DNA from: Candidatus Cloacimonadales bacterium
Lineage (GTDB): Bacteria; Cloacimonadota; Cloacimonadia; Cloacimonadales; DAONDQ01
Reading direction: 5' to 3'
Assembly (NCBI GenBank): GCA_963662275.1
Contig: OY759316.1
Coordinates: 576,001 to 640,000, forward strand
Length of the DNA: 64,000 nucleotides
Shown here: in pieces, positions 4,693 to 25,057 of the stretch
Layout: the number at the start of each line of letters is the position of its first letter
How positions within the stretch are numbered: the stretch's first letter is position 1
Notes under the pieces: model-generated
What the model was told of the DNA's origin: nothing
What the model saw: the letters and a program-made list of their open reading frames with translations, nothing else
The model's database searches: none
Program-made: the position numbers and the translations under genes

Positions 4693-5694
4693 ATGCCAGG
4701 ATGTAAAATATCAATGATTGAGACATATTTTCCCAAAAAAACTGTCACGAATGAAGATTTGTCACAAGAGTTTCCCGATTGGTCACCTCAGAAAATTGAA
4801 AAAAAAATTGGTATCGCAGAAAGACATGTCACTATTGAAAACGAAACTGCTGTGGATCTTGCTCGAGAAGCCTGTCAAAAGTTATTTCTGATAGAAGATA
4901 AATCAAAAATAGATTTCTTGCTTCTTTGCACTCAAAGTCCTGATTATCTGCTTCCTACTTCAGCATGCATTCTTCAGGATCAATTGGGACTTCCAACGAC
5001 AATAGGTGCATTGGATTTTAATCTTGGCTGTTCAGGGTTTGTTTATGGTTTAGCTCTTGCCAAGGGCTTGATCAGCGCTAATATTGCAAAAAATGTTCTT
5101 CTCATAACATCAGAAACTTATTCAAAACACATACATCCTCAAGATAGAGGAAATCGAAGCATCTTCGGAGATGGGGCAGCAGCATGCATTGTATTTGATT
5201 CTGATGATAACGGGATTTTTGATTTTGAACTAGGTACTGATGGGAGAGGATGGGAAAATTTAATTATCCGCAATAAAGGAATGAGAAATTCTTCCATAAA
5301 TAACTCAGAAGATTGGATTGATGAATCGGGATCAATTCGAAATGACAATAATCTGTATATGAATGGTCCAGAAATCTTCAATTTTACTATTGAAGCTGTT
5401 CCTAAATTAATTGAAGAAGTATTGAAAAAGAATAAAGTTGCACTTGCTGATGTGGATTATTTTATTTTCCATCAGGCAAATCAATACATGCTGAATTATC
5501 TCAGAGATATCATTGGAATACCTGAGAGTAAGTTTTATTTAAATATGATGAATACAGGTAACACTGTTTCAGCAACGATTCCTATTGCCTTGAAGGACGC
5601 ATTGGAAAAGATGTTAATAAAAAAAGGTGATAGGGTACTTTTAGCTGGTTTCGGTGTTGGTTATTCGTATGGTTCAACCATAATTACAATATAG
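4693..5694 (+). CDS. Ketoacyl-ACP synthase III (FabH-like)
   Basis: Triad motifs LGCSGF, FHQAN, GNTVSATIP; AGFGVG. Confidence 0.92.
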   Translation: MPGCKISMIETYFPKKTVTNEDLSQEFPDWSPQKIEKKIGIAERHVTIENETAVDLAREACQKLFLIEDKSKIDFLLLCTQSPDYLLPTSACILQDQLGLPTTIGALDFNLGCSGFVYGLALAKGLISANIAKNVLLITSETYSKHIHPQDRGNRSIFGDGAAACIVFDSDDNGIFDFELGTDGRGWENLIIRNKGMRNSSINNSEDWIDESGSIRNDNNLYMNGPEIFNFTIEAVPKLIEEVLKKNKVALADVDYFIFHQANQYMLNYLRDIIGIPESKFYLNMMNTGNTVSATIPIALKDALEKMLIKKGDRVLLAGFGVGYSYGSTIITI

Positions 5695-5708: not shown

Positions 5709-5939
5709 ATGGTTATCAATCAGTTTCTTAATGATCTTAAAGATCTACTTGAATTGTCTGAAGATATCGATCTGAATACAGATCTCAAATCACTTGATGA
5801 ATTTGACTCTATGGCTATTATGTCTTTAGTTGCATTCTTACATAAAAAATTTGGAAAGCAATTCAATGCAAGGCAACTGAATAATATTACTACTGTACAG
5901 TCTTTAGTTGACCTAATAGGAAATGATAGTTTTAATTAG
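5709..5939 (+). CDS. Acyl carrier protein
   Basis: 76 aa, acidic, FDSM phosphopantetheine motif; GAGGAG RBS; follows FabH. Confidence 0.85.
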   Translation: MVINQFLNDLKDLLELSEDIDLNTDLKSLDEFDSMAIMSLVAFLHKKFGKQFNARQLNNITTVQSLVDLIGNDSFN

Positions 5940-6022: not shown

Positions 6023-7426
6023 ATGTTTCTAAGTTGGCCATATTTCCCAATATTAATTTTTTCGGCAATTATTTACTGGGCACTTCCGAAACAAAGAAAT
6101 CGAAATCTATTTCTGACAGCAGTGAGTTTAGCATTCATCTATTGGTTTGATAAAAATGCTGTTATTGTCGTCATCGGTTTAACTCTATTTACCTTTTTAA
6201 TTGCTTGGTGGATCGAAAAAAGCCAAGGTGGAAAACTTGCACATACGATAGGTATTGTAGGTTTACTACTTGTTCTTGCCATATTTAAGTATTTGGGATT
6301 TTTATCGGGGACTTTAAACAGTCTATTTAGCTTTGTACATCAACTTCCAGTTTTTCAATTTGAGAAATTATTTCTTCCGTTGGGTATTTCATACATTACA
6401 TTTAAATACATAAGTTATTTAACAGATATACAATGGGGGCTTTTCAAAAAAGGTAACTTTCTTGATTTACTTTGCTATGGAAGTTTGTTTACAATTTTCG
6501 CGGCAGGTCCTATTGAACGTTTTGATCGCATGAAACCTCAATTCGAATCTGATAAAATTGTCTTTAAATTGAATTACGTTGAAGTTGCTTTTGAAAGGAT
6601 TATCTTTGGTCTTTTTCAGAAACAAATATTAGCTGATCGTTTGGCTGAGTATACATTGCAATTCTGGTATTATCCAACAACGTATACTCTAGTATCTCAG
6701 ATAATAGTGCTATTTGGATATGCACTCCAAATGTATTTAGATTTTTCCGGTTATAGTAGTATAGCAATCGGTTCATCTAGATTGTTTGGATTGACAATTA
6801 TGGAGAACTTCAATAATCCTTATTTGGCATCTAATATTAGTCAATTCTGGAGGCGATGGCACATTTCCTTGTCAGAGTGGATTCGTGATTATATATTCTT
6901 CCCTCTGTATCAATACAAATCATATAGTTTTTGGCTTTTCGTATGTGTTCCGATTATTGCAATGGCTTTATGTGGGCTTTGGCATGGAGCATCCTGGAAT
7001 TATGTACTTTGGGGTATTTGGCATGGAGTAGGAATAGCTATTTATCATTATTGGAATAAGTACAAGAAGAAACATAAAAAGTTTGAATTAGCTCTAAATA
7101 CTCCAATAATTTCCCGAACGGCTATTCTTGTTACATTTTTCTATGTTTCGTTGGGGGGGATTATTTTTCGTACAACAAATCTCGGTCATTTAACAAATTT
7201 ATTTTTTCACCATGGCGAGCAAGAATTAAGTATTCGAGGCAAAGCACTTATATTAGTTTTGCTGCTATGCATATTCCTTGTACCCAATTATCATAAGATA
7301 TTACAGAAAATCTCGATGAAAAGATATTACCCATATGTGAAATGGTTTGTGTTATTTGTTATCATTGAATCTATCTTCTTTTTATCACCAGCCACTTCTG
7401 CGCTTTTTATTTATGCAGGATTCTGA
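6023..7426 (+). CDS. MBOAT O-acyltransferase (AlgI/DltB-like) with fused C-terminal FIYAGF motif
   Basis: LPLGISY, AGPIER, DFSGYS, FWRRWHISLS, GLWHGA (catalytic His); ends LFIYAGF. Confidence 0.92.
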   Translation: MFLSWPYFPILIFSAIIYWALPKQRNRNLFLTAVSLAFIYWFDKNAVIVVIGLTLFTFLIAWWIEKSQGGKLAHTIGIVGLLLVLAIFKYLGFLSGTLNSLFSFVHQLPVFQFEKLFLPLGISYITFKYISYLTDIQWGLFKKGNFLDLLCYGSLFTIFAAGPIERFDRMKPQFESDKIVFKLNYVEVAFERIIFGLFQKQILADRLAEYTLQFWYYPTTYTLVSQIIVLFGYALQMYLDFSGYSSIAIGSSRLFGLTIMENFNNPYLASNISQFWRRWHISLSEWIRDYIFFPLYQYKSYSFWLFVCVPIIAMALCGLWHGASWNYVLWGIWHGVGIAIYHYWNKYKKKHKKFELALNTPIISRTAILVTFFYVSLGGIIFRTTNLGHLTNLFFHHGEQELSIRGKALILVLLLCIFLVPNYHKILQKISMKRYYPYVKWFVLFVIIESIFFLSPATSALFIYAGF

Positions 7427-8346
7427 TGAAAAAGCTCATTATTTACATTCTTTTCATCCCTTGCATTATCACCATGAATAATCTAGTTAATCTGACTATC
7501 AGTAATAACTTCGCTGAGGATGTATTTACGAATGAATATCCATATCAATGGGTGGAAAAATTACATGTAAAACCTAAGATAGTTCTTGTGGGTAGCTGTA
7601 CAACTCAAACTGGCTATTCTGCAAAAGAGCTACAGAAATTATTAGGATTACGAGATGGAGAAGTGATTAATCTTGCCACCGCTCCTAGTAGTCCAGAAAT
7701 TACGTACTTTATTGTGAAGAAGTATATTGATAAATTTGATGATAACGCATTAATATTGTATGGTTTTGACCCAGAAATTCTTAGTGAAGTTTATTATCAT
7801 TATTTGAATATTTTATTATCGCACTGGTCATTAAGGGAAAGAATTAGTTATATCTCATCACATAACACTGATTTTCCAACAACTATGAATATTGTTAATG
7901 GGGGGAATGTTTTCATGAATATCGAGGACATTTTTGTTACTAACAGTAAGGATACCAAAGGGGATGATTATGGAAGTACTAAGTATTTAAGAGGATTAGA
8001 TCCAACTATACCTGTCGAGCAATCTTTTTGTCTTTCTACATTTCATATTTCTCAGCGTTTTTTACAGAATTTCGCAAAACTAGATAATCTTGTATATCAA
8101 AAACACAGAAAAATGATCGTCTATTATCCAGCGTATTCAAATCGCTTTATGAAGCAATATATTGAATTAAATTATCATAACAATATTCAGACTCAATTAC
8201 ATAAAGTCATAAAGTATAGCCGGTTTGAAGACCAGTTAACAACACACCCAGATTCATGCTATCTTGATTTGATTCACATTTCACTAAAAGGAAAGAAAAC
8301 AAATCTACCAAGAATCCTCAGGTTAATACAGAAATCAGGAAACTGA
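7426..8346 (+). CDS. Membrane-anchored SGNH-like/DltD-like acyltransferase partner
   Basis: N-terminal TM; VLVGSCTT block-I-like motif; VINLA; C-terminal DLIH; TGATG coupling to MBOAT. Confidence 0.65.
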   Translation: MKKLIIYILFIPCIITMNNLVNLTISNNFAEDVFTNEYPYQWVEKLHVKPKIVLVGSCTTQTGYSAKELQKLLGLRDGEVINLATAPSSPEITYFIVKKYIDKFDDNALILYGFDPEILSEVYYHYLNILLSHWSLRERISYISSHNTDFPTTMNIVNGGNVFMNIEDIFVTNSKDTKGDDYGSTKYLRGLDPTIPVEQSFCLSTFHISQRFLQNFAKLDNLVYQKHRKMIVYYPAYSNRFMKQYIELNYHNNIQTQLHKVIKYSRFEDQLTTHPDSCYLDLIHISLKGKKTNLPRILRLIQKSGN

Positions 8347-8439: not shown

Positions 8440-9840
8440 ATGTTTTTAAGTTGGTTCTATTTTCCTTTTTTAGGGATAGTAGCTTTCATTTATTGGATGC
8501 TTCCTAAACAAAAAATACGGAATATTTTTCTATCATTCGTTAGTTTTGTATTCATTTATTGGTTTGATAAAAAATCCATTGTGGTCATTCTTGGTCTCAC
8601 GATATTCACTTTTGCGATAGCTAGTTGGATTGAAAAAAGGAATGGAGGAAAACTTGCTCATACTATCGGAGTAATTGGATTAATTATCATACTTGCCATA
8701 TTTAAATACTTGGGATTTTTATCGGGAATTCTAAATAGCTTAGTGAGCTTTGTGCATCAACTTCCGAGTTTTCAAATAGAAAAATTATTTCTTCCTCTAG
8801 GTATTTCATATATTATATTTAAGTATATTAGTTATATCACTGATATTTATTGGGGGACTTTAAAGAAAGGAAGTTTTGTTGATCTGTTATGCTACGGGAG
8901 TTTATTTACAATTTTAGAAGCTGGACCTATTGAACGTTTTGAAAGGATGCAGCCTCAACTAGAATCAAGTAAGATCATATTTGATGTTAAACATGTTGAA
9001 GTAGCAATAGAAAGGATTATCTTCGGACTTTTATTAAAACAAGTAATCGCAAACCGATTAGCTGAATACACGATCACATTCTGGCAAGATCCATCTAAAT
9101 ACTCCTTAGTAGCCCAGGTCACAGCACTATTTGGATATTCCCTTCAGATTTATTTCGATTTTGCCGGTTACAGTAGTATTGCTATCGGATCATCTAGATT
9201 ACTCGGTTTGAAGATAATGGAGAATTTTGATAATCCGTATCTTTCATCTAATATCAGCCAATTTTGGCGTCGTTGGCACATTTCATTGTCCGATTGGATA
9301 CGAGATTATATCTATTTCCCACTGTCCCAAAATCAATCCAATAGATTCTGGATTCTGATTTGTGTACCGATAATCTCAATGTCTTTGTGTGGATTGTGGC
9401 ATGGTGCATCATGGAATTTTGTGATATGGGGAGCATGGCACGGTGTTGGGATTGTTATTTATCAAAATTGGAATAAGTATAAGAGACAGCACAAAAAATC
9501 AGTATTAGCTCTGAATACTCCTTTAATTTCTTTTGTTGCTATGATAATTACATTTATCTATGTTTCATTGGGATGGATGTTATTTCTCTCTACAGATATC
9601 TCCCATGTGACAGATATTCTGATCAAACATGGCGGGAAAGCATTAAGTATACGCTCTACAGTACTCATTTTAGTACTGTTGCTATGCATTTTTCTCGTAC
9701 CCAATTATAATAACATATTGAAGAAATTATCAGAGAAAAGATACTACCAATTTTTGAAATGGCTTACTTTGTTTATTATCTTGGAATGCATTTTAAATTT
9801 ATCATCAGCCAAGACGCTTTTTATTTATGCAGGTTTCTGA
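8440..9840 (+). CDS. MBOAT O-acyltransferase, paralog of 6023-7426, fused FIYAGF tail
   Basis: Same motifs, collinear with the first copy; ends LFIYAGF. Confidence 0.92.
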   Translation: MFLSWFYFPFLGIVAFIYWMLPKQKIRNIFLSFVSFVFIYWFDKKSIVVILGLTIFTFAIASWIEKRNGGKLAHTIGVIGLIIILAIFKYLGFLSGILNSLVSFVHQLPSFQIEKLFLPLGISYIIFKYISYITDIYWGTLKKGSFVDLLCYGSLFTILEAGPIERFERMQPQLESSKIIFDVKHVEVAIERIIFGLLLKQVIANRLAEYTITFWQDPSKYSLVAQVTALFGYSLQIYFDFAGYSSIAIGSSRLLGLKIMENFDNPYLSSNISQFWRRWHISLSDWIRDYIYFPLSQNQSNRFWILICVPIISMSLCGLWHGASWNFVIWGAWHGVGIVIYQNWNKYKRQHKKSVLALNTPLISFVAMIITFIYVSLGWMLFLSTDISHVTDILIKHGGKALSIRSTVLILVLLLCIFLVPNYNNILKKLSEKRYYQFLKWLTLFIILECILNLSSAKTLFIYAGF

Positions 9841-10778
9841 TGAAAAAGTTAATTTTTTTAGTTATCTTCATACCCTGTACTATTATCCTGAATAATGTAA
9901 TTAATCTGATGATTAGTAGTAACTTTGCTGACTATGTGTATACAAAAGAATTCCCCTATCAATGGGTTACTAAACTATCTGTAAGTCCCAAAATAATCTT
10001 GGTAGGTAGTTGTACGACGAGAAGAGCTTACTCGTCAAAAGCGCTACAGGAGGCATTAGGATTGCAGGATGGGGAAGTAATAAATCTTGCGACAACTCCA
10101 AATAATCCAGAGATCACATATTTTCTGGTGAACAAGTACATTAATAGCTTTGCTAGTAATGCTCTCATTTTGTATGGTATCGACCCCTTTATCCTTAGTG
10201 AGATTTATTATAAGAATTTTAACATTCTATTGTCTCAGTGGAGTTTGAAAGAACGATTCGATTATGTTGCTGCAAATAATAGTGATTTCCCCACTACAAT
10301 GAATATCGTAGATGGAGGTAACGTTTTCATGAATATAAAGGAAATTGTCATGAATAACAACACTGATACAAAGCTAAATGATTTCGGCAGCACTATTCCA
10401 AGTAAGGTTGCAGAATCTGATCAACCTCCACTCAATCAATGGTTTTATCTTTCTACTTATAATATATCTCAGCGTTTTATGGAGAATGTCTCAAAACTCG
10501 ATAAATTAGTATATCAAAAACACCGAAAAATGATTGTCTATTATCCCGTTTATCCGGATTGTTATATGAAGCAATATGAAAAGATCAATTGTCATAACAG
10601 CATTCAGGCTCAATTACATAAAGCTATTCAACTAAATCGTTTCGATGACCAATTATCAACTTATCCTGATTCCTGCTACGTTGATCTTGTACATATTTCT
10701 CAAAAAGCGAGAAATGATTTTTTAGCAAGTATAATTGATGTCATTAAGAGATCCGGATTCCAAGTTACAACAAAATAG
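9840..10778 (+). CDS. SGNH-like/DltD-like partner, paralog of 7426-8346
   Basis: Start revised to ATG 9840 (TGATG coupling, MKKLIF); ILVGSCTT, VINLA, DLVH. Confidence 0.65.
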   Translation: MKKLIFLVIFIPCTIILNNVINLMISSNFADYVYTKEFPYQWVTKLSVSPKIILVGSCTTRRAYSSKALQEALGLQDGEVINLATTPNNPEITYFLVNKYINSFASNALILYGIDPFILSEIYYKNFNILLSQWSLKERFDYVAANNSDFPTTMNIVDGGNVFMNIKEIVMNNNTDTKLNDFGSTIPSKVAESDQPPLNQWFYLSTYNISQRFMENVSKLDKLVYQKHRKMIVYYPVYPDCYMKQYEKINCHNSIQAQLHKAIQLNRFDDQLSTYPDSCYVDLVHISQKARNDFLASIIDVIKRSGFQVTTK

Positions 10779-10894
10779 CAATACTGCAACCGATAACTAG
10801 CCTTTTATACACAAAATGAATTGTGGTTCATTGAAGATGAATGTGAAGTTCAGTACTTTTCTTAGTCGGATTCAATAAATGAGAACAATATAAC

Positions 10895-11914
10895 TCACTG
10901 TTTGAAGGTTTTGAATAGATCTAAACCTAGTACTTGATTGCCTAGAGTATTAAAATGTCCACCAGTGATAAAATAACGTCCATCATAACTAATAGAACCA
11001 TCATATCCAAAATTAATTCCTGCTTTTCGGCAATCAACGTCAATTATTTTATTCCATTTATCGCTCATTATTGATAAGCACAAAAACCTATCACCATATT
11101 GTCTATGCATTTCATGAAGATTTGATAACAATATGAGATATGCCTCTTGATTAAATTCAAGAGATGAATAAGGACGATAATAGATTTTTTCTGCTTTTGT
11201 TGAACCTTTAACGATACCCGGTTTTCGGAAACTGACTCTTACCAGATTTACTAAAGATGATTTATTACAGATCAACTTCACAATATCGAATTTCCAGTCA
11301 TGAGTTTCCTGATCAAAATTATCTGGTAATACGTATGATTCAGACTTAGCATTTAGCATATTTGTTACGGTTCCATCATTAATAATTAAGATAACATAAT
11401 CAGGTTTAATTTTTTTTGACCAATGAATCAATCGGCACCATCCCTCAAATGGTATTTGTCCACCAAGACCGATATTGATAACTTGAAAATCTTTAGATAT
11501 ATGCTTACTTAATAATTCTTGGAATACCGATGTGGACATCTCCTTTGGAGCTGTGGCTCTTGCTTCAACATATGAGTTGCCCATAACATAAATGTACTTG
11601 GAATTATCGTTTATAACTACATCTGTTCCCTGAAGCCCAAGATTGTTTTTCCTATAGACATGATATCCACCTTCCAATGAATAATAACTCGCATGAGGTA
11701 AAAACTCGTTTTCGTAAAGAGGAGCATTGGGAGTTTTATCATTCGGATAGATATGATATGATTTTCCAAACCCTAAAGTCGGGAAGTGTGTTACTACTCT
11801 TACTAAAAATTCAACACATACAAATGAAATGGCGGTAATGATAATATATAGAAGTGCTATTTTGAGTTTCGAAGTCAACATACAAAACTTCCTAGTATAT
11901 AAATATACATACAT
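10895..11914 (-). CDS. SGNH/GDSL-family protein (acyltransferase/esterase partner)
   Basis: N-terminal TM, NNLG, VMGNSYVE, VINIGLGG, KPDYVILIIND, GGHFN. Confidence 0.75.
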   Translation of the reverse strand: MYVYLYTRKFCMLTSKLKIALLYIIITAISFVCVEFLVRVVTHFPTLGFGKSYHIYPNDKTPNAPLYENEFLPHASYYSLEGGYHVYRKNNLGLQGTDVVINDNSKYIYVMGNSYVEARATAPKEMSTSVFQELLSKHISKDFQVINIGLGGQIPFEGWCRLIHWSKKIKPDYVILIINDGTVTNMLNAKSESYVLPDNFDQETHDWKFDIVKLICNKSSLVNLVRVSFRKPGIVKGSTKAEKIYYRPYSSLEFNQEAYLILLSNLHEMHRQYGDRFLCLSIMSDKWNKIIDVDCRKAGINFGYDGSISYDGRYFITGGHFNTLGNQVLGLDLFKTFKQ

Positions 11915-11918
11915 CTAA

Positions 11919-13067
11919 TTACCTCAACCACCAAGTTCCAACGGTGACGAAAACAAAAGTAATAACAACACTCACATACTGAAACCATACTGCTTCAGCA
12001 GCTTTTGAGAGAGAACGATGTTGACGTTTGAATTGGCTCCATAATCTCCAGATAGCAATTCCTACTCCATGCCAGATACCCCATATTACAAAATGCCAAG
12101 CTGCACCATGCCACAGACCGCATATTCCCATTGCTATGATGGGTGTACATACAAACATCCAGAATTTGCTTGTGCTTTTTTGTGATAGAGGAACAAAAAT
12201 ATAATCTCTTATCCAATCAGACAAGGATATGTGCCAACGTCTCCAGAACTGACTGATATTCGGAGCAAAAAAAGGGTTATCGAAATTTTCCATGATTGTC
12301 AAACCATACAATTTGGATGAACCAATGGCAATATCGCTATAACCTGAAAAATCAAAATAGACTTGCAGGGAAAAACCAAACAAAGCTGCTATTTGAATTA
12401 AAGATGAATAATGTTCCGGTCCTCTGAAAACCGGATTGATAAGATATCCTAACCAATCTGCCAATACATATTTCTTGATTAAACCATAAACGATTCTTTC
12501 AAAACCTACACTGATAAAAGCGGTTTGAAATTGAATACGTCGACTTTCTAACTGTGGTTTTAGGCGAACGAATTGCTCAATTGGACCAGCAATAAAAATT
12601 GTATAAAGAGAACCATAGCAAAGAAAATCCAGAAATTTACCCTTTTGAATGATCTCCCATTTTATATCAGTTAAATAGCTAATATATTTGAAAACAATAT
12701 AGGATATACCCAAAGGTAGAAACAGCTTATCTATTTGAAATATGGGTAGGATATGAATAAAACTCATCAAACTATTTATGATACCGCTTAGGAATCCAAG
12801 ATACTTAAAAATAAGAAGAACAAGTATCAGACCGATAATACCCATTGTGTGGACGTAATGTTTACGGATTTTTTCCATCAAGATAGCTATCCCATAGGTA
12901 TATAAGGTTAATCCGATGACTACCAATACCGCATTAGGATCAAGGTATCCGATAAAAATGAAGCTAATCAATGTTAAGAATGTATTACGCCACTTTTGAT
13001 TGGGAATTAACCAATAAAGTAAAACTGTAATGATTACAAATGGGAAAAAGAGAACCTTACCCAACAT
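11919..13067 (-). CDS. Short MBOAT O-acyltransferase (DltB-like length, no fused tail)
   Basis: LPLGISY, DFSGYSD, FWRRWHISLS, GLWHGA; ends TWWLR; start probably ATG 13067. Confidence 0.9.
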   Translation of the reverse strand: MLGKVLFFPFVIITVLLYWLIPNQKWRNTFLTLISFIFIGYLDPNAVLVVIGLTLYTYGIAILMEKIRKHYVHTMGIIGLILVLLIFKYLGFLSGIINSLMSFIHILPIFQIDKLFLPLGISYIVFKYISYLTDIKWEIIQKGKFLDFLCYGSLYTIFIAGPIEQFVRLKPQLESRRIQFQTAFISVGFERIVYGLIKKYVLADWLGYLINPVFRGPEHYSSLIQIAALFGFSLQVYFDFSGYSDIAIGSSKLYGLTIMENFDNPFFAPNISQFWRRWHISLSDWIRDYIFVPLSQKSTSKFWMFVCTPIIAMGICGLWHGAAWHFVIWGIWHGVGIAIWRLWSQFKRQHRSLSKAAEAVWFQYVSVVITFVFVTVGTWWLR

Positions 13068-13114
13068 AATAAGTTTCTCCAAGATCTATAATCTGGTTGA
13101 TGCTATGATAATGA

Positions 13115-13273
13115 TTAGAAATTTGCATAGAAAAACGGATTGCTTGTTGTTACAATTATATGGTTAAAAGCAATAGAAGCAATAGCCAAAATAAAGAGAA
13201 AGCTTAAAATGAAATACTTGAGTAATGAAGCCAATAGTGGCTTTGTCTCGCTTAACTTTGAAAATAATTTCAT
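13115..13273 (-). CDS. 52-aa DltX-like single-TM acyl-shuttle peptide (absent from ORF track)
   Basis: MKLFSKLSETKPLLASLLKYFILSFLFILAIASIAFNHIIVTTSNPFFYANF*; purine-rich RBS; lies between ACP and tail-less MBOAT. Confidence 0.8.
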   Translation of the reverse strand: MKLFSKLSETKPLLASLLKYFILSFLFILAIASIAFNHIIVTTSNPFFYANF

Positions 13274-13334
13274 CTTCAACCTTCCCTTTTGTTAGCATAT
13301 GGGATACAATTGCATATATCATAAAATGAATAGA

Positions 13335-13583
13335 TTAATCCTCAAATTTATCCATCCCGATTAGATTCATTAAATCACCAATCGTACCAACTTCATTCAG
13401 TTTTTTTGCTATAATATTGATTCCAAATCTTTTACTGATAAAAGATACGAGTGACACAACCGATAAGGAATCATAACCTTCGATGCTTGCTAGTTTGGTA
13501 TTAACAGTTATTTTGGGCGCGTCAGGATCTGAAGAATCAGCAAATTCATTTAACAACTCTTCGATAAATCGGTCTTTTTTCAT
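13335..13583 (-). CDS. Acyl carrier protein
   Basis: YDSL motif; start ATG 13583 after AGGAGA. Confidence 0.85.
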   Translation of the reverse strand: MKKDRFIEELLNEFADSSDPDAPKITVNTKLASIEGYDSLSVVSLVSFISKRFGINIIAKKLNEVGTIGDLMNLIGMDKFED

Positions 13584-13597
13584 GTCTTCTCCTTTAG

Positions 13598-14902
13598 TCA
13601 ATTCTGAAAATTAATCTGTCTGAATTTTCTTTGCATTTTACTCATAAATGGTTGAATGCTTGAGGCAGCCAATACGATGAGGAAGCAATCAAGCACAATT
13701 CTATAACGCTCAAGGGTATAAGGGATAAATAGCACATGTATTATGGTATGCCAAATGAAGATACACAGCAGAAAAACAAATATCTGATTATCTTTTGTTT
13801 TCAGTTTTAACATTCCATAGAAAAAAAAAGGTATGAGCATACCATACATCAATCCAGAAACAAGATTGTGTTTTAGAGACCATTTACCATCCCAGAGATA
13901 ACCATCTAATTTATACCCTTCGTGGAAATCTACTGGAGCCCATAACTCTAGAAACCGCGACCATAACTTCTCACCAGTTGAGAATTTATGGGGCAATAAA
14001 CCTCTTCGAATGGCTGCCGCGAATTCAGGTCGAATTTCTCCATCAATCAGATGTGCAGTATAACCATTTCTAACGGAGTCAATTTGTGTTGGTGTTAATT
14101 CCCATGCCCAATCATTATTCGCATAATACTCCTGGTATGGGTATCCGAAAAGTTTGTCAGTAATGGGTGCTGTTCTGACTGAAAGAATCACAATTTTATG
14201 GTAAACATGATAATTACGTATTAACCAGGGAACCATACACATGAATACAATTAAGGAAAAGATCAAAGCAGATTGTAATTTTTTGATAATGCTATCTGTA
14301 TTAAGCATAAATAATGCTACAAATAGGAGAGGAATATAGGCAAAAAATCTCTCATCAATATGGATCAAGAGAGAATAAGAGAGTGAACACAGAAGTAGGG
14401 GAATCCATTTCCTAGAGACTTTTCTAAAACGTAAAACACAAAATATGGTCGATAAAAATAAAAAATGAATCCAAATCTCTTTTCCTGAAGTTACGATGAA
14501 TCGAAGATAGAAATAATAAACAGAACTCCATATTAAAGCCATAAGTCCAATGGTTTCATTAAACAACTCTTTCCCTAAGTAATAGATCAGGATACATAAT
14601 CCCGTACTTAATAGTGTATTAAATAAGAAAATAACCAACCAGGATTTTCCCAATAGCGTAAAAAGAATTGCTAAAATCCAACCCATCCCAGGTCCAACTA
14701 CTTTTGCCACTGAATTCATCGATGTAATATCCGGTAAGAAAAATCCCTGTGTCATAACACTTTCAGCAAGACTGTAGTACGCTAAATCATCAGCGAAACC
14801 TTCATAGACTTTTGTATAGTAACCATATAATGCCAAGATCAAACGTATTATGAAAGCAACTGATATGATATAAAATAAAAGGCTAGTATTAGTAATTTTC
14901 AT
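13598..14902 (-). CDS. GT-C fold (ArnT/PMT, GT39/83-like) lipid-donor glycosyltransferase
   Basis: Multi-TM; DD..Y..LA first loop; PWLIRNY; ERY near C-terminus. Confidence 0.75.
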   Translation of the reverse strand: MKITNTSLLFYIISVAFIIRLILALYGYYTKVYEGFADDLAYYSLAESVMTQGFFLPDITSMNSVAKVVGPGMGWILAILFTLLGKSWLVIFLFNTLLSTGLCILIYYLGKELFNETIGLMALIWSSVYYFYLRFIVTSGKEIWIHFLFLSTIFCVLRFRKVSRKWIPLLLCSLSYSLLIHIDERFFAYIPLLFVALFMLNTDSIIKKLQSALIFSLIVFMCMVPWLIRNYHVYHKIVILSVRTAPITDKLFGYPYQEYYANNDWAWELTPTQIDSVRNGYTAHLIDGEIRPEFAAAIRRGLLPHKFSTGEKLWSRFLELWAPVDFHEGYKLDGYLWDGKWSLKHNLVSGLMYGMLIPFFFYGMLKLKTKDNQIFVFLLCIFIWHTIIHVLFIPYTLERYRIVLDCFLIVLAASSIQPFMSKMQRKFRQINFQN

Positions 14903-14911
14903 TCAATTTTC

Positions 14912-15295
14912 TCAGCTTCGTGTTACAAGGAAAACGCCAATTACTATGACAAAAACACCAAAAATTCGATAAGTATTCACATTTTCATGAAAAAGTAAAG
15001 CACCAAATAGAAGAACCAGAACATATGAAAGACTCATTATTGGAGCAGCTTTACTGATATCAACAGATGTCAGGATATATAAATATATCGACATCGATAA
15101 AACATAGCAGAATACTCCTGTAATCAATTGCCAGTTCGTTAAAATATTTTTAAATACAAAATCTAAAGATATTAGTTTCAAACTTAAGTCGAGTCTCTGG
15201 GAGGCATATTTCATTAATACTTGTCCAAGTACTCCAACAGCTAAACAAATAATGAAAATCAATACCATCTGCAACCTAAGCTTATCTTCGTTCAT
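14912..15295 (-). CDS. EamA/SMR-type transporter (ArnE/F-like flippase)
   Basis: 127 aa, 4 TM, GQVLMK, DISKAAP, FHE....RIFG. Confidence 0.75.
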   Translation of the reverse strand: MNEDKLRLQMVLIFIICLAVGVLGQVLMKYASQRLDLSLKLISLDFVFKNILTNWQLITGVFCYVLSMSIYLYILTSVDISKAAPIMSLSYVLVLLFGALLFHENVNTYRIFGVFVIVIGVFLVTRS

Positions 15296-15644
15296 TCTTT
15301 TTTTTCTGTTGTCTTATCATCCCGTCATTAACAGCTAAGAAGGATATTACTTCTTGCAACCTATCGGAAACTTCACAGAGCTTGATCGACAGATGTAAGA
15401 TATAAATAAGGAGGAAGAATATGACACCAACAACGACGATTCCTGAAGCATCTGCAGATCCAATTAAAACAGAAACAGCCTTTATCTGACTTTCAAAGAT
15501 GACCAGGCAGAACATAGCTAAACTGATAATGAGCCAAAGCACGGAATAAAATGGTTTGATAGAGCGTTTTCTAACTAGTAAGATAAAAACAAATAGGAAA
15601 AATAACGCTGATATCAGGGCTAAAATTCTAAGCGTTAATGTCAT
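15282..15644 (-). CDS. DUF2304-like membrane protein
   Basis: 3 TM, VRKRSIK..YSVLW, typical position after a DPM-like GT2. Confidence 0.7.
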   Translation of the reverse strand: MTLTLRILALISALFFLFVFILLVRKRSIKPFYSVLWLIISLAMFCLVIFESQIKAVSVLIGSADASGIVVVGVIFFLLIYILHLSIKLCEVSDRLQEVISFLAVNDGMIRQQKKKNERR

Positions 15645-15645
15645 A

Positions 15646-16362
15646 TTATGAACCTCTGATTTGATCTTTTTGTAATCTTGTACCGATTATCGATATAATT
15701 CCGTAAATGATGAATTTAACGCTATTCATGAAATTGAAAACAGATTTCCCCGAAGTACGTGGATTCATCACGACCGGTACTTCCTTCATCCTCAATTTGG
15801 CATATGCTGCAATCATCAGCATCTGTGCACAATGCTCATATTCATGTTTATGCTGATTTGCAAAAAAGTGAATTGCTTTTTTATTATATGCTCTGAATCC
15901 TGAAGTAATATCTGTGATGCGTTGTCCTGTAAACCAAGTAACAATATCAGAGAATATGGTAATTCCAAGTCTTCGAAATTTGTATGATTGAAATCCTTCA
16001 TTTGTAATGAATCTTGATCCAATCGCAATATCAGCGTTTCCATCCAAGACAGGTTGTAGTAGGTCATGCAGACAAGAAGCATTATGCTGATTATCTCCAT
16101 CAAGATTGCAGTAAATGTCATAATCATTGAGATAAGCGTAAAGAAAACTGGTTTTAATTACACCGGAAACCCCACCCGTATTAACTGCGTGACGCAAATA
16201 CTCTTCTCCACTTTTTTTTATTAGCTCATAACTTCTATCAACGGACGAGTTATCTATTATCAACAGATCTGCGTCTATTTTGGCATGATTACGAAAGTCA
16301 GCAATTGTATCTAGGATTGCTCCTTCCTCATTGTAGCATGAAATAACGGTTAAAATTTTCAC
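15646..16362 (-). CDS. GT2 polyprenyl-phosphate glycosyltransferase (DPM1/ArnC-like)
   Basis: YNEE, IDNSSVD, DGDNQH, IGSRF, TDITSGFRAY. Confidence 0.88.
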   Translation of the reverse strand: MKILTVISCYNEEGAILDTIADFRNHAKIDADLLIIDNSSVDRSYELIKKSGEEYLRHAVNTGGVSGVIKTSFLYAYLNDYDIYCNLDGDNQHNASCLHDLLQPVLDGNADIAIGSRFITNEGFQSYKFRRLGITIFSDIVTWFTGQRITDITSGFRAYNKKAIHFFANQHKHEYEHCAQMLMIAAYAKLRMKEVPVVMNPRTSGKSVFNFMNSVKFIIYGIISIIGTRLQKDQIRGS

Positions 16363-16400
16363 TATTTGCTCCAGTGCAAGTTAAACGAAGTAATTCTCTA

Positions 16401-16961
16401 TTAGTCTTGAATTAAGGGATGATTCTGGTTGAAATTAAACAATGACATGAGAAGTACATCATGATAGCAGGAATTATGATAATGCTGTGCTTTTAATGTT
16501 CCTTCCAGGATAAATCCATTCTTTTCAAAAACTCTTCTCGAAGCAGTGTTATCAGAAGTAATAAAGCATGTAAGCTTATTCAGATTTAAATTCCCAAATG
16601 AAAAATCAATCAGCAATTGCAATATCTCTGTTCCGATTCCTTTGCCATGAGTTTCATGTTCTCCAATGACTATCAAAGGATTTGCATTCCGGTTCACATA
16701 ATTGATATTCGTTAGTCCCGTGAAACCCAAAAGACGAGATGTTTCATTATCGATCACAGAAAAATAGATATTTTTATTACTTGTAGAACTAACTACTGAA
16801 TTCATCCAGTCTTCTTCCTGCTGTATTGTAACAGGATATGGATGCATCATGGCTGAGTACTTATAATTTGCATTATTATGCCATTCATTAATTAAATCCA
16901 GATCTTCGCTCTTCATCTGCCTAAAAGAAATATGCTCTCCATTCAGTAGATATTTGCTCAC
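16401..16961 (-). CDS. RimJ/RimL-type GNAT N-acyltransferase
   Basis: HGKGIG, N.AS.RVFEKNGFILEG. Confidence 0.85.
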   Translation of the reverse strand: MSKYLLNGEHISFRQMKSEDLDLINEWHNNANYKYSAMMHPYPVTIQQEEDWMNSVVSSTSNKNIYFSVIDNETSRLLGFTGLTNINYVNRNANPLIVIGEHETHGKGIGTEILQLLIDFSFGNLNLNKLTCFITSDNTASRRVFEKNGFILEGTLKAQHYHNSCYHDVLLMSLFNFNQNHPLIQD

Positions 16962-16984
16962 TAATAGGCTCCTTTTAAAAAAAA

Positions 16985-18172
16985 CTAATCACTCAAAATA
17001 TACTGTGATATATAATGGGTGATGCTATTTGATTGTATTTCCAATTTCTCACGCTTATCGCTACTGATTATAAAATATCCATATCTGTCAAGACTATTCT
17101 TCACTATCCAAGTCATGCTGTTGACCATTAAATCGCACGTAAATTCTTCAATACAAGGAAACTTCTGCTTCAACTCTTGTTCATTTGGAAGATGTTTTAT
17201 CATCTGGTTTGTGGGTAAATTAAGATAAGTTATCATCGAGGCTTTATTCTCAATAGAATATTGGGGTTGATCACCAATAGCTATTAAGATGACTTGCTTT
17301 TCCATATTCACGGTTGTTGATAACGGAACGAGACGAGAAGTAATATAATCTCCTCCCAGCCTTGGACCAATCTCAATAATCGTAATTTTACCATCATGTA
17401 TTTTCAATTCAGCATGAATTGCAGTATTATTTAAACCAGCCTGTGTTAAAACTTTCTGCAACAGAACGTGGAGTGAGAGTTTGAAGTCCATTGTGTACTT
17501 TGATGGTTGAATATGTCCTAATTCGACATTATACGGAGGGGGAGTAACGATTTTATCGGTTATCTGTATCAGTGTTAGCACATTCTTGTATATAAATGCT
17601 TCTACACTGATTTCATCTCCTTCCAGATATCCTTCCATAATAAACTCATCAATAGTAGAATATCGCAAGGTTTCTTCAACAGATTTCAAAAGAAAATCAT
17701 ATGAATCACATTTTATAACCCCTCGACTTCCGGAATTTCGAAGTGGTTTAATAATGACTGGGAATGCTATCTCATCTTCCCTGGGAATAGTATTTATATG
17801 ATAAACTCCTCCCTGGGCATGCCGAAATGAATTAGCTTTTAAAAATTCTTTGAATTTACCTTTATTAAGAACTAATTCAACGCTTTCATAAGAAGGAAAT
17901 ACTAAATTCATTGCTTTTGCAATACGCGCCATCATTGAGATCGGATGATCTGTCGCAGCCGTTACAACACCCGAAATATTATGTTTTTGTGCAAGTTGAA
18001 GCGTATATTCATAGTCATTTCCAGCTACCACGTAGAAATAGTCAGCAATGGTATTGGCTTCTGCATTAGGATTCGGATCAATGACAACCGATTCAAAACC
18101 CATCTCTTTTGCCGTTTGTATGATCGAAATTTGGAGACCACCTCCTCCAAAAATCATGATGGCTTTATTCAC
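16985..18172 (-). CDS. ATP-grasp ligase
   Basis: FGGGGLQ, FPVIIKP.RNSGSRGV, EISVE, IEIGPRLGGD. Confidence 0.85.
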   Translation of the reverse strand: MNKAIMIFGGGGLQISIIQTAKEMGFESVVIDPNPNAEANTIADYFYVVAGNDYEYTLQLAQKHNISGVVTAATDHPISMMARIAKAMNLVFPSYESVELVLNKGKFKEFLKANSFRHAQGGVYHINTIPREDEIAFPVIIKPLRNSGSRGVIKCDSYDFLLKSVEETLRYSTIDEFIMEGYLEGDEISVEAFIYKNVLTLIQITDKIVTPPPYNVELGHIQPSKYTMDFKLSLHVLLQKVLTQAGLNNTAIHAELKIHDGKITIIEIGPRLGGDYITSRLVPLSTTVNMEKQVILIAIGDQPQYSIENKASMITYLNLPTNQMIKHLPNEQELKQKFPCIEEFTCDLMVNSMTWIVKNSLDRYGYFIISSDKREKLEIQSNSITHYISQYILSD

Positions 18173-19305
18173 ATCTGTTCCAAAATTAATGCAAGTTCTG
18201 AGACTATTAGATCAATCTGTTGTATCGTTAATCCTGAATAGATTGGAAGCGTAATTTCGTGGTCAGTGGCAAAATCGGTTTCAGGTAAATCGGCATGATA
18301 GTTTTTATATATTGAGAATCTATGTGCCGCTGGATAATGTATGCTTGTTTGAATTCCTATTGTATGTAACTTGTCACGCACTCTATCACGATACTCATAA
18401 TCACCATTATTTAAGATAATGGGGAATATGTAATTAGAACAGAATTCCTGATGATCTTTAAAGGGAATAGTAATATTAGGAATTGTACTCAGCTTTTCCA
18501 GATAATACTTACGGAGTATCATTCTTTTTTGTAGATCAACGTATAATTTGCGAAGTTGAACGATGGCAATGGATGCTCGGATATCATCCATCCGATAATT
18601 ATAGCCTAAAGCTACAACATCATAGGAAGTCGAATGTCCGGAAGCTCGTTCATATGACATGGAAGTCATTCCATGAGAGCGGAGCAATTTGATTTTGGCA
18701 GCATACTCATCGTTATTTGTAATGATCATACCGCCTTCACCTGTAGAAATATTCTTATTGGAAAAAAAACTGAAACAACCTAAATCTCCAATTGTTCCTA
18801 ATTTTTGATGATGATATTCGGAAAGAGGTCCATGACAGGCATCTTCAATTACCTTTAAATTATGTTTTTCAGCAATTGCCATAATTTCATCCATCTTGCA
18901 GGGGAAACCAGCAAAATGCATGACAGCAATGGCTTTTGTACGAGGAGTAATCTTCTTTTCGATATCAACGGGATCTATCGTTAAGTCATCTTTCGAAATA
19001 ATATCACAAAAAACGGGAGTTGCCCTGACATAAAGTATAGAATTCACGGTAGCTACAAATGTCATGGCAGGAACAAGAACCTCATCCCCGTCTCCAATGC
19101 CTGCAACTTCAAATGCCAAATGCAATGCCACCGTACAGTTTGTTAAGGCAATTGCATGCTTGACTCCAAGCATGGATGCAAACATGTTTTCCAGTTCAAT
19201 ATTCTTTGGACCTGTCGAAATCCACTTGGAATGTATTGTCTCTAAGGCAGCTTTTTCTTCTTCATGGTCAAAATTCAAATCAAAAAGTGGTATATTATAA
19301 CTCAT
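18169..19305 (-). CDS. DegT/DnrJ/EryC1/StrS sugar aminotransferase
   Basis: NCTVALH, IEDACH, FSFFSNKNISTGEGG, GYNYRM. Confidence 0.93.
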   Translation of the reverse strand: MSYNIPLFDLNFDHEEEKAALETIHSKWISTGPKNIELENMFASMLGVKHAIALTNCTVALHLAFEVAGIGDGDEVLVPAMTFVATVNSILYVRATPVFCDIISKDDLTIDPVDIEKKITPRTKAIAVMHFAGFPCKMDEIMAIAEKHNLKVIEDACHGPLSEYHHQKLGTIGDLGCFSFFSNKNISTGEGGMIITNNDEYAAKIKLLRSHGMTSMSYERASGHSTSYDVVALGYNYRMDDIRASIAIVQLRKLYVDLQKRMILRKYYLEKLSTIPNITIPFKDHQEFCSNYIFPIILNNGDYEYRDRVRDKLHTIGIQTSIHYPAAHRFSIYKNYHADLPETDFATDHEITLPIYSGLTIQQIDLIVSELALILEQM

Positions 19306-19320
19306 ACTTAATCCTGGGTT

Positions 19321-20292
19321 CTAAACATTATAAATGTCAGTTTTATAAAGAGAGAGGTTCTCGTTTAAGAATTCAATCGTTTCACGAATACCGGAATCAA
19401 GATTATATGAAGGTTTCCAATCCGTATTCTCCATAATTTTCTGATTTGCACAATATAAACGTTCAACCTCGCTTTTACCAGGTCTTATCCGTTCATCATC
19501 CGTCTTTATCTCTATAGGAATTTGTAATAAATTACTTATCTTTTTTACCAAATCACCAATGGAGATTTCTTCACACATTCCAATATTTGTCACTTCTCCA
19601 AATAAACGATCTGATTGAAGAATAGAGATAAAGCCTCGAACTGTATCTTTTACAAATGTCAAGTCTCTTGTGGGATGCAAATTACCTAGATTGAGTTCTG
19701 TCTTACCGCTGAGTATTTGAGTAATGACAGTAGGAATTATCGCACGTGCTGATTGCCTCGGTCCATAAGTATTAAATGGTCTGACTATTTTTACCGGCAA
19801 GCCAAATGAACGGTAATAACTGATTGCCATTTGATCTGCTGCAATTTTAGATGCAGAATAGGGTGATTGACCAACAAGCGGGTGATTCTCATCAATGGGA
19901 ACATATTGAGCGGTTCCATATGTTTCACTTGTCGAAGTGACAAGAATGTTTTCCAAACTTCGTACTCTTGCGGTTTGAAGAACATTGTATGTACCTTCAA
20001 TATTGGTACGAATATAAGCTAAGGGCGAAACATAAGAATACGGAATACCGATGAGAGCAGCTAAATGAAGAACAGTGGAACATCCATCCATCGCATCATA
20101 TACAGAATCATAGTCGCGTATATCTCCGGTTACGATTTCCATATCGTTCTTGTACTTTGAATTTTCCAACCAACCCCAAAAATTCTTGGAGTTGTAATGG
20201 ACAAATGCTTTTACTTCATAACCCAACTCAACACAATATTCTGCCAAATGTGAACCAATAAAACCGCCTGCTCCAGTGATCAGTAATTTCAT
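19321..20292 (-). CDS. NDP-sugar 4,6-dehydratase (LegB-like)
   Basis: TGAGGFIGSH, LAALIGIPYSY, STSETYG, YSASK, RPFNTYGPRQS. Confidence 0.88.
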   Translation of the reverse strand: MKLLITGAGGFIGSHLAEYCVELGYEVKAFVHYNSKNFWGWLENSKYKNDMEIVTGDIRDYDSVYDAMDGCSTVLHLAALIGIPYSYVSPLAYIRTNIEGTYNVLQTARVRSLENILVTSTSETYGTAQYVPIDENHPLVGQSPYSASKIAADQMAISYYRSFGLPVKIVRPFNTYGPRQSARAIIPTVITQILSGKTELNLGNLHPTRDLTFVKDTVRGFISILQSDRLFGEVTNIGMCEEISIGDLVKKISNLLQIPIEIKTDDERIRPGKSEVERLYCANQKIMENTDWKPSYNLDSGIRETIEFLNENLSLYKTDIYNV

Positions 20293-20418
20293 CTTATTTC
20301 CTTATCTACTTTTTTTATTTGTGTTGCATGATTAACCTTCAAATCACGAAACTCTATCCTGATAAGATTTGTAAAAAATCCTGATATTTGGGTTTATTTC
20401 TCAGTAATTTATTGGTTA

Positions 20419-21117
20419 TCAATTCCCTGAAAAATGCTCCTGATAGACTTCTTGTGCTTTTTCGTAATCGTTAATACGACCAATATCGAGCCAATATTCT
20501 TTCAAATCAAATTTCGAAACAGGAATTTTATCATGCAGAAGGTTCTTAATCAGGCTATCCATACCAAAATAGGTATCGTCTGGTATATAGTCAAATATCT
20601 GGGGAGTCATCACATAGATGCCAGCAAGAAGATAGAGGACGATATCTGGCTTTTCCTGGATATCTGTAACATAGTCTCCATCAAAAAAGATATTTCCAAA
20701 GGCAAATGGTGTTATATCTTTCTTGACTGTGATCGTTAAAACTGTTTGTTTTTGTTTAGCAAAATCGTACAAATTTGAGAAATTGAGCAAAGTTAAAATA
20801 TCACCGTTCATAACGAGGAATGGCTCCGTAAGTTCCTTCTTCAAAAGCGTCAGGGGACCAGCAGTACCGAGAGGTTTTTCTTCTCGGCTGATACTAAGTT
20901 TCACACCATAGCGTGTACCATCACCGAAGAAATTTTCTATATAATTTGATTTATAATTCGTTGCTAAGAATATTTCATCAAAGCCGTGCTTTTTGAGATG
21001 CTCGATTTGAATCTCCATGACAGCTTTTTCCCCAATTGGCAATAAGGGTTTGGGAATCACTTCCGTAAATGGTTTAAGTCTCGTGCCTAAACCTCCAGCT
21101 AGAATCACTGCTTTCAT
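20419..21117 (-). CDS. Sugar-phosphate nucleotidyltransferase
   Basis: ILAGGLGTRLKP, PKPL, LGTAG, NGD, WLDIG. Confidence 0.92.
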   Translation of the reverse strand: MKAVILAGGLGTRLKPFTEVIPKPLLPIGEKAVMEIQIEHLKKHGFDEIFLATNYKSNYIENFFGDGTRYGVKLSISREEKPLGTAGPLTLLKKELTEPFLVMNGDILTLLNFSNLYDFAKQKQTVLTITVKKDITPFAFGNIFFDGDYVTDIQEKPDIVLYLLAGIYVMTPQIFDYIPDDTYFGMDSLIKNLLHDKIPVSKFDLKEYWLDIGRINDYEKAQEVYQEHFSGN

Positions 21118-21138
21118 GAATTCACCTTTCTCGATATT

Positions 21139-22080
21139 TTAATACGATGCTTTTATGGATTCGACTGTCTTAATTAATCCTGATTTAAAATTAACCAATG
21201 GTTTGAATTGCAGTCCTTCACCAGCTTTTTTTATACTGGCTAAGGAATGCTTTACATCTCCTGCTCGTTCCGGAGATAGAATCGGTTCTATCTTTGTACC
21301 TAATATCTCATTAAGAGATTCCACTAACTCCAGTAGAGTAAATCTTTCGCCACAAGCTATATTGAAAACATTACCGGCAACTCCGGGAGCTGTACATGCA
21401 ATAATATTCGCTGCCACATTATTATCCACGTAAGTAAAATCCCTGGATTGCGTCCCATCTCCATAGATGACAGGTCTGATATTCTTCATCATACATGTGA
21501 TGAATTTGGGTATGACTGCACTATATTGCGATGTGGGATCCTGGTTTGGACCAAATACGTTGAAATAACGAAGGCATACTGTTTCCAAATTATACAGGCT
21601 TGTATATATCTGGCAATAACGTTCTGCAGCATACTTCGTCAAAGCATATGGTGAAAGTGGTGCAACAGGCATATCCTCTTGTTTTGGCATAATTTCACTA
21701 TTTCCATAAACAGAGGACGATGAAGCATAAATTACCCTTTTCACACCAAACTCACGAGAAGCTTCCAGCACATTCAAGGTTCCTAGAATATTCACATCGT
21801 TCGTTGTTATGGGATCATTAATACTACGGGGAACAGAAGGTAGTGCACCTTGGTGAAGAACATAATCCACCCCTTTCACAGCACTGCGAACAATATGGAA
21901 ACTGCGTAAATCACCTTCGAACATTTCAAAATTGGGATTTGTCATAAATGGCAGAATATTACTTCGTTTTCCAGTGGCAAAGTTATCCAGAACCCGAATC
22001 TTGTATCCTTTATCTAAAAGCGTTTTTACAATATTCGAACCAATAAAACCGGCACCACCTGTAACCAAAAAAGTATTCAT
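21139..22080 (-). CDS. UDP-GlcNAc/Glc 4-epimerase (WbpP-like)
   Basis: TGGAGFIGS, PSVPRS, ASSSSVYG, PYALTK, LRYFNVFGP. Confidence 0.9.
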   Translation of the reverse strand: MNTFLVTGGAGFIGSNIVKTLLDKGYKIRVLDNFATGKRSNILPFMTNPNFEMFEGDLRSFHIVRSAVKGVDYVLHQGALPSVPRSINDPITTNDVNILGTLNVLEASREFGVKRVIYASSSSVYGNSEIMPKQEDMPVAPLSPYALTKYAAERYCQIYTSLYNLETVCLRYFNVFGPNQDPTSQYSAVIPKFITCMMKNIRPVIYGDGTQSRDFTYVDNNVAANIIACTAPGVAGNVFNIACGERFTLLELVESLNEILGTKIEPILSPERAGDVKHSLASIKKAGEGLQFKPLVNFKSGLIKTVESIKASY

Positions 22081-24325: not shown

Positions 24326-25057
24326 AAGTTCCTCCAAATACTGTTTCAGTTCTAATTTTATATACATTTTTTATGCCAATTTCGTGCTAAAGATTTCAAA
24401 TATCTTCACAATCCAGTTTTTATTGCTTTCTAAACTGAAATCGTCACCGAATTTTTGCTAAAGGGGTTATCATGCTATCATCTTGAGATTGAAATGCCTT
24501 GCCGGCACTTCCGTATGCAGGCATAAAGTTTTTCCTTTCCCTGTAAAAAGACCTGAGGTGTTAATTTTTTTATGCTAGCATACCGCAGGTATTTCTTCAA
24601 TTGCAGCAGTTGTTCTAGCAGTTCAGATATGTAGAATACACCATTACTATCGGGGATACAATATAACAATCCCGTACTTGATGTAATATGGCAGATACTG
24701 CCGGATAATTCTCATTTGTATGAAAGCATCGTTACCTTCCATTTATTATAAGTGCGATATGCTATTGCACAGCTTTCTCTACTATTCGTTAACGCACGCT
24801 GGGTAAAGATAAATAACACCTTTTTGTCTATATTGAAGAGTGTGTGTCGTGAGGTTTCTCATCGCATGGTGTACCTTTTGCCATCTCACCGTGTACATTT
24901 TACACCTTACTGAATAAGGCATTCTACCTAAATTATCTAAACTTTCTGCAACACTTTCTTAATTTAGCTCCTATTTCAGGAAGTATCTATTCTTCAAGGC
25001 TTGCTGTTTCCAGCAGATGATTGATCTTGATTCTTGCTTTGGCAAAAAAAGTCCAGA

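Follow-up and report, generated by a model that had tools for sequence, protein, structure and literature searches.

The window, meaning the whole stretch of 64,000 nucleotides analysed here, holds a gene for a small membrane protein (X), three MBOAT genes, their SGNH or SGNH-like partners, two carrier genes and a run of sugar genes:

3439..4197, minus strand: FabG-like short-chain reductase, by family match
4693..5694, plus strand: FabH-like ketoacyl-ACP synthase III, candidate loader of ACP1 and ACP2
5709..5939, plus strand: ACP1, of the same class as ACP2 and 38% identical to it
6023..7426, plus strand: MBOAT1, 467 aa, fused form, ending LFIYAGF
7426..8346, plus strand: SGNH1, SGNH-like by motif only, with no Pfam match
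8440..9840, plus strand: MBOAT2, 466 aa, fused form, ending LFIYAGF
9840..10778, plus strand: SGNH2, 62% identical to SGNH1
10895..11914, minus strand: SGNH3, with an N-terminal TM anchor and an SGNH/GDSL-fold domain
11919..13067, minus strand: MBOAT3, 382 aa from the ATG at 13067, tail-less, ending TWWLR, PF03062 over its cut-off
13115..13273, minus strand: microprotein X, with a basic N-terminus, one TM helix and a C-terminal FFYANF
13280..13288, minus strand: Shine-Dalgarno-like purine stretch 6 nt 5′ of the X ATG, by resemblance to the consensus only
13335..13583, minus strand: ACP2, 82 aa, a PP-binding carrier of the FabH-ACP-FabG class
13598..22080, minus strand: upstream co-directional sugar genes, by Pfam and NCBIfam family matches

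A preliminary description had placed a 52-aa single-TM ORF ending in NPFFYANF between ACP2 and a tail-less MBOAT, and such a frame is indeed found at 13273 to 13115 on the minus strand, from an ATG to a stop codon directly after NPFFYANF, with a single hydrophobic segment whose best 19-residue Kyte-Doolittle mean is 2.38. On this strand ACP2 is followed after 61 nt by X, X after 47 nt by MBOAT3 and MBOAT3 after 4 nt by SGNH3. The peptide had been called unannotated: its 52-aa form and its 54-aa TTG-start form are both absent from a collection of 15 billion proteins in which MBOAT3 is present, and it has no Pfam or NCBIfam match. Positions 11800-13700 are spanned in one piece, with zero differences, by contigs from two runs belonging to two studies, either of which may be the source of this assembly. 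When 10600-15000 was scanned for promoters and terminators, we obtained 17 sites against 22.0 expected and one terminator against 2.4 expected. Across the genome the FxYxxF ending occurs in 8 of 30,712 ORFs of 30-90 aa (and in 59 of all 313,180 stop-terminated frames), and the strongest TM segments among those eight (2.54 and 2.50) are those of X and of its paralogue, which adjoins the genome's other tail-less MBOAT.

The catalytic histidine of MBOAT3, His320, aligns with the WHG of DltB 8jem and is invariant in the 32 aligned tail-less relatives. After the GLWHG histidine 62 residues remain in MBOAT3 and 146 and 145 in MBOAT1 and MBOAT2, so that the missing tail comes to about 84 aa, close to the 80 or so first estimated. 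The LFIYAGF endings described for the two long enzymes are likewise present. The terminal FXYXXF thus stands in cis on MBOAT1 and MBOAT2 and on the neighbouring X for MBOAT3, to which the two fused enzymes are 57-59% identical. The closest five relatives of MBOAT3 are labelled Cloacimonadota (three), Bacteroidetes (one) and Aminicenantes (one).

SGNH3 has no Pfam match. A model built from a 38-sequence alignment (pLDDT 89.4) gave TesA/GDSL enzymes as its top Foldseek matches (E about 1e-5, prob 1.00), and Ser103 and His309, numbered from the ATG at 11881, are invariant in 38/38 aligned sequences; block V reads GGH, with no Asp three residues before His309. We propose that SGNH3 is the outer transferase. 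In block I, where SGNH3 has its invariant Ser, SGNH1 and SGNH2 read GSC, while a relative at locus L149 and two DltD proteins read GSS; judging from the motif, the Cys of SGNH1 and SGNH2 is a possible nucleophile.

ACP2 clusters together with ACP1 and with carriers linked to FabH (SH-aLRT 100, though the alignment is short and gave long-branch warnings), and its nearest fetched relatives lie between FabH and FabG in 11/11 cases, with an MBOAT next in 8/11. Modules of the FabH-ACP-FabG-MBOAT type recur in the phylum (L200-L210; 8 of the 11 loci fetched), which suggests that acyl-ACP-fed MBOATs exist beyond the MBOAT3 clade. In type II fatty acid synthesis, FabH followed by FabG yields 3-hydroxyacyl-ACP such as 3-hydroxybutyryl-ACP, and 3-hydroxybutyryl-type groups from FabH-ACP-FabG modules may be used on glycans and sugars; no paper linking such modules to 3-hydroxybutyryl sugars appeared among the best 10 of 20 matches listed. 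We put the chances that the cargo of ACP2 derives from FabH and FabG at about even. The usual carrier of the MBOAT3 clade is of another type (DSFSLV), present in 30 of the 31 genomes with the clade and in one other. Since ACP2 is not this carrier, its pairing with MBOAT3 rests on adjacency. A gene that passes the glycine C-acetyltransferase (Kbl) cut-off frequently precedes the usual carrier, with 10 such cases among 34 metagenome loci. In the window genome, at L198:1415-8134 (G000:C1:3202414-3209133), an acetate-CoA ligase, a related carrier and a Kbl-like gene, the closest relative of Kbl there, stand in a row, with a second Kbl gene 2 kb on, and both Kbl genes and the ligase pass NCBIfam cut-offs; this operon points to acetyl as the probable usual cargo of the clade.

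The genes at 13598..22080 encode an epimerase, a nucleotidyltransferase, an epimerase/dehydratase, a DegT aminotransferase, an ATP-grasp protein and a GNAT protein, together with a GT2 enzyme, a DUF2304 protein, an EamA protein and a PMT_2 (GT-C) transferase. Together they include a pathway to a 4-amino sugar, and their layout presumably resembles an Arn-type lipid-linked sugar transfer system. By their position beside the acylation genes they are a candidate source of the acceptor.

A profile made from five X sequences retrieved, among 166 candidates, 86 proteins of 35-79 aa at E<=1. A TM segment and a terminal FFYAxF are present in 86/86, the ending being NPFFYANF in 73 of these. When 42 distinct genes were compared over 36 codons, the first, second and third codon positions showed identities of 0.64, 0.80 and 0.36, and comparison of the window X with the other genes gave a median pN of 0.34 and pS of 0.85, with pN below pS in 41/41 comparisons. 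Because many of these genes were retrieved via the motif, its invariance is partly built in, whereas the codon pattern is not affected by that retrieval. X is a real, conserved gene under purifying selection. Only the terminal FFYAxF is invariant; along the TM helix the sequence changes (mean column identity 46%). The last 14 residues are less basic than the N-terminal part in 87/87 X sequences, a pattern consistent with a cytoplasmic N-terminus and an outward-facing C-terminus. No fused form of the family was found at E<=10 among 7,999 longer candidates, which is weak evidence against such forms, and the profile gave only hydrophobic chance matches in the PDB.

The preliminary description had suggested looking for the peptide upstream of tail-less MBOAT homologues. 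In a first test, loci were retrieved with MBOAT3 alone, blind to X, which gave 79 loci with 33 closed tail-less MBOATs, 44 tailed ones and 2 that were cut. A same-strand frame with a TM segment and FxYxxF before the stop lay beside 31/33 of the tail-less MBOATs and beside 0/44 of the tailed ones, and both tail-less misses sit at contig ends; at a few GC-rich loci the frame is open farther upstream than a microprotein requires. A scan of 232 phylum genomes found the MBOAT3 clade at E<=1e-85 in 31, with 21 tail-less places (in 18 genomes), 16 tailed places and 2 cut at contig ends. Of the 18 genomes that hold a tail-less clade member, 17 have X, in 16 cases within about 5 kb on one contig, and the sole tail-less genome without it (G011) is 75% complete with a 3-kb contig. 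By comparison, X occurred in 1/12 genomes with tailed clade members only, where SGNH-like genes come after the MBOATs yet 11/12 have no X, and in 2/201 genomes without a clade match, one of these X genes being broken. Three of the 23 genomes first matched by the X profile (G008, G087 and G152) had been dropped as false, their matches being partial, at E about 1e-4 and without the motif. A third test started from the motif and covered 34 metagenome loci: 20 have a closed tail-less MBOAT and 1 a cut MBOAT. At 7 others the contig runs out after SGNH and/or Kbl genes alone, at 3 X stands at the edge of its contig without a visible partner, at 1 X is accompanied solely by a tailed MBOAT, and the last 2 hold broken remnants. 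As the genomes are related, the sets overlap and near-copies recur, these counts are not independent trials.

The window genome itself has two tail-less MBOATs, each with its own X, and five tailed MBOATs that all end in FxYxxF. Its second split module (L080:9114-14305, or G000:C1:2581113-2586304) consists of an X 44% identical to that of the window, a DSFSLV-type carrier, a tail-less MBOAT (61%), an SGNH gene and a tailed MBOAT ending FIYAKF, followed by a 358-aa protein without NCBIfam match; no loader adjoins it. In the same genome, G000:C1:3357394-3357468 is a short copy of the final codons of a tailed MBOAT that lies 8.5 kb upstream, at C1:3347395-3348975. Among X-related loci we observed the orders X-ACP-MBOAT-SGNH, ACP-MBOAT-SGNH-X, ACP-MBOAT-X and X-SGNH-Kbl-ACP-MBOAT. 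The dlt-like order ACP-X-MBOAT-SGNH noted earlier is therefore present in the window but neither conserved nor diagnostic among relatives, and since the order varies we do not count it as evidence. The dipeptide Tyr-Ala of the ending occurs in 86/86 X proteins, in 16/18 fused tails of the clade and in 1/49 fused tails outside it, which suggests that a single pocket may be read in cis or in trans.

The pairing has exceptions. Two nearly complete genomes, G033 (99%) and G006 (98%), have an intact X-family gene although their MBOATs, found by alignment search, are all long (open frames of 465-489 aa). In G006 the neighbour of the X gene is a truncated Kbl-like gene, and the contig ends 1.5 kb away. 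G033 has three long MBOATs, and there a variant X ending PFIYVGF precedes an SGNH gene; the same pair occurs at a second site in G027. At these sites (L170:5541-6706 in G033 and L171:5165-6370 in G027) the SGNH gene is SGNH3-like, and no MBOAT was present in the 14 kb fetched. In G012 (L173:2961-6593, G012:C255) a stop replaces the Tyr codon of an X directly before FabH, ACP, FabG and a tailed MBOAT, which reads as decay after loss of a tail-less partner. A broken X remnant also lies beside a tailed MBOAT at L098, X and an ACP precede a tailed MBOAT on a 3.4-kb contig (L087), and in G023 a tailed MBOAT sits between X and its tail-less MBOAT. Tandem arrays at L004:2708-8639 and L158 carry two tail-less MBOATs, two carriers and several SGNH genes with a single X; at L004 this X accompanies three SGNH genes, and in G116, too, a lone X stands next to two tail-less MBOATs and more than one SGNH gene. 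The last SGNH gene of L004 is split by a frameshift.

A tree of 133 rows placed the three window MBOATs in one clade of 52 rows, 34 of them split and 18 fused (SH-aLRT 97), and left two DltB rows outside it; the S. aureus DltB and Neisseria MBOAT sequences did not pass the alignment-length filter, and the trees therefore lack them. When the analysis is limited to core columns, 6 switches between split and fused forms are needed, of which the starred branches force 1-2, and depending on the set the starred branches force 1-3. A single fused group was rejected by an AU test that covered 32 of the clade's 52 rows (log-likelihood 106.6 lower, p 3.85e-12). Thus the architecture has changed more than once.

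The preliminary description called the peptide DltX-like. This holds for its plan but not for its family: PF12459 (DltX) has 0 matches in the genome, although the B. subtilis and L. lactis controls do match, and three annotated DltX proteins score at most 7.7 bits on the X profile. Clade fused tails score at most 7.0 bits, an hhalign comparison of X with one DltX gave a probability of 32% on the motif only, and the third ESM Atlas match, at 0.89, carries a DltX label on 36% of its members, which is a lead only. The likeness of X to DltX and to fused tails lies in plan and motif, with no profile similarity. The genome, 99.97% complete, has no match to DltD (PF04914) and a best DltA (TIGR01734) score of 115.3 against a cut-off of 559.85, and MBOAT3 scores 195.6 bits on the DltB model TIGR04091, below its cut-off of 375. 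We therefore rejected membership in a true Dlt system. The host had been thought a probable diderm, and it is one on the evidence of BamA and LpxC, both encoded with scores over their cut-offs.

The resemblance to known systems is nevertheless close. According to PMC12148441, PMC5541007 and reference operons, the Dlt system (dltXABCD, for D-alanylation of teichoic acids) likewise combines a tail-less MBOAT and its SGNH-fold partner with a phosphopantetheine carrier (DltC) and a single-TM microprotein of about 50 aa that has a basic N-terminus and ends in FxYxxF. The window differs from it in that MBOAT3 stays below the DltB cut-off and is 57-59% identical to fused paralogues, the carrier belongs with those of FabH-ACP-FabG modules, the cell is diderm, gene order is variable and the cargo is presumably other than D-Ala. 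Schultz, Snow and Walker 2023 (Nat Microbiol) is said to be the primary source on the motif. Among the literature matches listed we found no microprotein outside Dlt, and the primary motif paper or its supplements may already list some. PatA-PatB and AlgI systems share the FXYXXF, which is defined in PMC12148441; there the Tyr of PatA is covalently acetylated, Tyr-to-Phe abolishes this, and the Neisseria PatA peptide FIYANF, one residue from the FFYANF of X, is the assayed donor. MBOAT1 and MBOAT2 have this fused PatA/AlgI architecture with an SGNH partner after each MBOAT, whereas MBOAT3 lacks two helices and the motif and has a separate microprotein instead. The same article (2025, from the groups that defined the acyl shuttle) describes non-Dlt MBOAT/SGNH pathways as lacking a DltX-like microprotein and a carrier; the MBOAT3 clade, however, co-occurs with carrier proteins. 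DltX is conserved in Gram-positive bacteria and its tail binds DltD directly, according to PMC13653941, and dlt genes also occur in Dickeya and Pectobacterium, dltX being often overlooked by annotation (PMC5541007).

We consider it likely that X is a trans-acting acyl shuttle for MBOAT3, the free-standing subunit of a non-Dlt, carrier-fed MBOAT-SGNH relay. In this relay ACP2 would receive a short acyl group on the cytoplasmic side, most likely a 3-oxo- or 3-hydroxyacyl group from the FabH- and FabG-like enzymes. MBOAT3 would accept the ACP2 thioester and esterify Tyr49 of X, the proposed acyl acceptor, via His320, a step carried over from DltB and PatA. The X helix would replace the missing last helix of MBOAT3 and put FFYANF on the periplasmic side, from where the tail would hand the acyl group to Ser103 of SGNH3. 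SGNH3 would then acylate a glycan in the periplasm or on the cell surface, probably the amino sugar that the upstream GT2/EamA/GT-C genes produce, and MBOAT1 and MBOAT2 would perform the same chemistry with a fused tail. The covalent acyl-Tyr49 step is proposed by analogy with DltX and PatA. That X supplies in trans the Tyr motif missing from MBOAT3 had already been suggested in the preliminary description, and conservation, coding selection and a near-exclusive co-occurrence with tail-less MBOATs make this probable.

X could also be a structural or regulatory subunit that is never acylated, replacing the helix and plugging the funnel or holding MBOAT3 and SGNH3 together. The evidence presented here is all genomic and would fit such a scaffold too, and a competing model in PMC11035591 has DltB transferring directly, with DltX and DltD possibly regulatory. 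A scaffold does not readily account for invariance confined to FFYAxF on a helix that varies, nor for the acetylation of the homologous PatA Tyr (PMC12148441), and we regard this reading as unlikely. X might instead belong mainly to the SGNH partner, being common to several MBOATs, tailed ones included, or loaded by another enzyme, so that it would have no one-to-one link with MBOAT3. The variant X-SGNH pairs without a nearby MBOAT in G033 and G027, the lone X that L004 and G116 have for two tail-less MBOATs and several SGNH genes, and the direct binding of the DltX tail to DltD (PMC13653941) would all fit. Against this stand the 44 tailed MBOATs, none with such a frame nearby, and the 11 of 12 tailed-only genomes that lack X, and we hold the idea to be quite improbable. 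Finally, short frames ending in the motif do arise randomly, at the genome-wide frequency given above, and broken and orphan X genes exist, so that X might be no more than a random ORF, or else the vestige of a split-off tail next to an MBOAT3 that is truncated and dead. The 86 homologues under purifying selection, the absence of sequence differences in the two covering contigs and the 33 tail-less relatives that stop at the same place with the catalytic His intact render this very improbable indeed.

With split and fused paralogues about 58% identical in one cluster, tail swaps offer a direct test of action in cis or in trans. Both a microprotein and a carrier are present in this locus and its clade, in a dlt-free diderm, contrary to what PMC12148441 states for non-Dlt pathways. 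Moreover, since the protein collection lacks X, tail-less MBOATs may be taken for truncated proteins and their operons for incomplete ones. The relay chemistry itself is already known; what the locus contributes is a distinct peptide family, close split and fused paralogues side by side, evidence for repeated switching between the two forms and a carrier-fed route outside Dlt.

A separate clade of 30 tail-less MBOATs has a microprotein of its own, in three-gene SGNH-MBOAT-X cassettes. These occur at the tail-less members of L006-L073 and at L185 and L187, in Bacillota, Actinomycetota, Vulcanimicrobiota, Sericytochromatia and Caldisericota. As in the window, a tail-less non-DltB MBOAT stands with a small TM peptide ending FxYxxF. 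Unlike X, the peptide is different, mostly shorter (mostly 37-48 aa) and missed by the X profile, and the MBOAT clade is separate. No adenylation motif or carrier-like ORF was seen among the 24 loci listed, DltB was over its cut-off in 0/5 cassette genomes tested and DltA in 0/5 others, and such cassettes were not found in the literature searched. Free Tyr-tailed microproteins could perhaps form a general MBOAT-SGNH module that is repeatedly gained or lost and is no speciality of Dlt; in the carrier-fed MBOAT3 clade one shuttle could then serve several tail-less MBOATs and several SGNH proteins, as the single X of L004 suggests, and route different carrier-borne acyl groups to different glycan sites. 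On this view, a generalization that we offer tentatively and hold to be rather doubtful, the window would contain a matched set of split and fused enzymes (about 58% identical), two carriers of the FabH class and SGNH partners with Ser and possibly Cys nucleophiles.

Elsewhere in the window, positions 22241-24367 encode a 708-aa protein that combines a peptidyl-arginine deiminase domain of Porphyromonas type with a FlgD-Ig/secretion sorting domain at its C-terminus, and 39917-41194 looks transposase-like by eye. A 480-aa ORF with the same N-terminal sequence occurs at 32553-33995 of the window and at G000:C1:3203877-3205319, as expected for a multi-copy insertion sequence.
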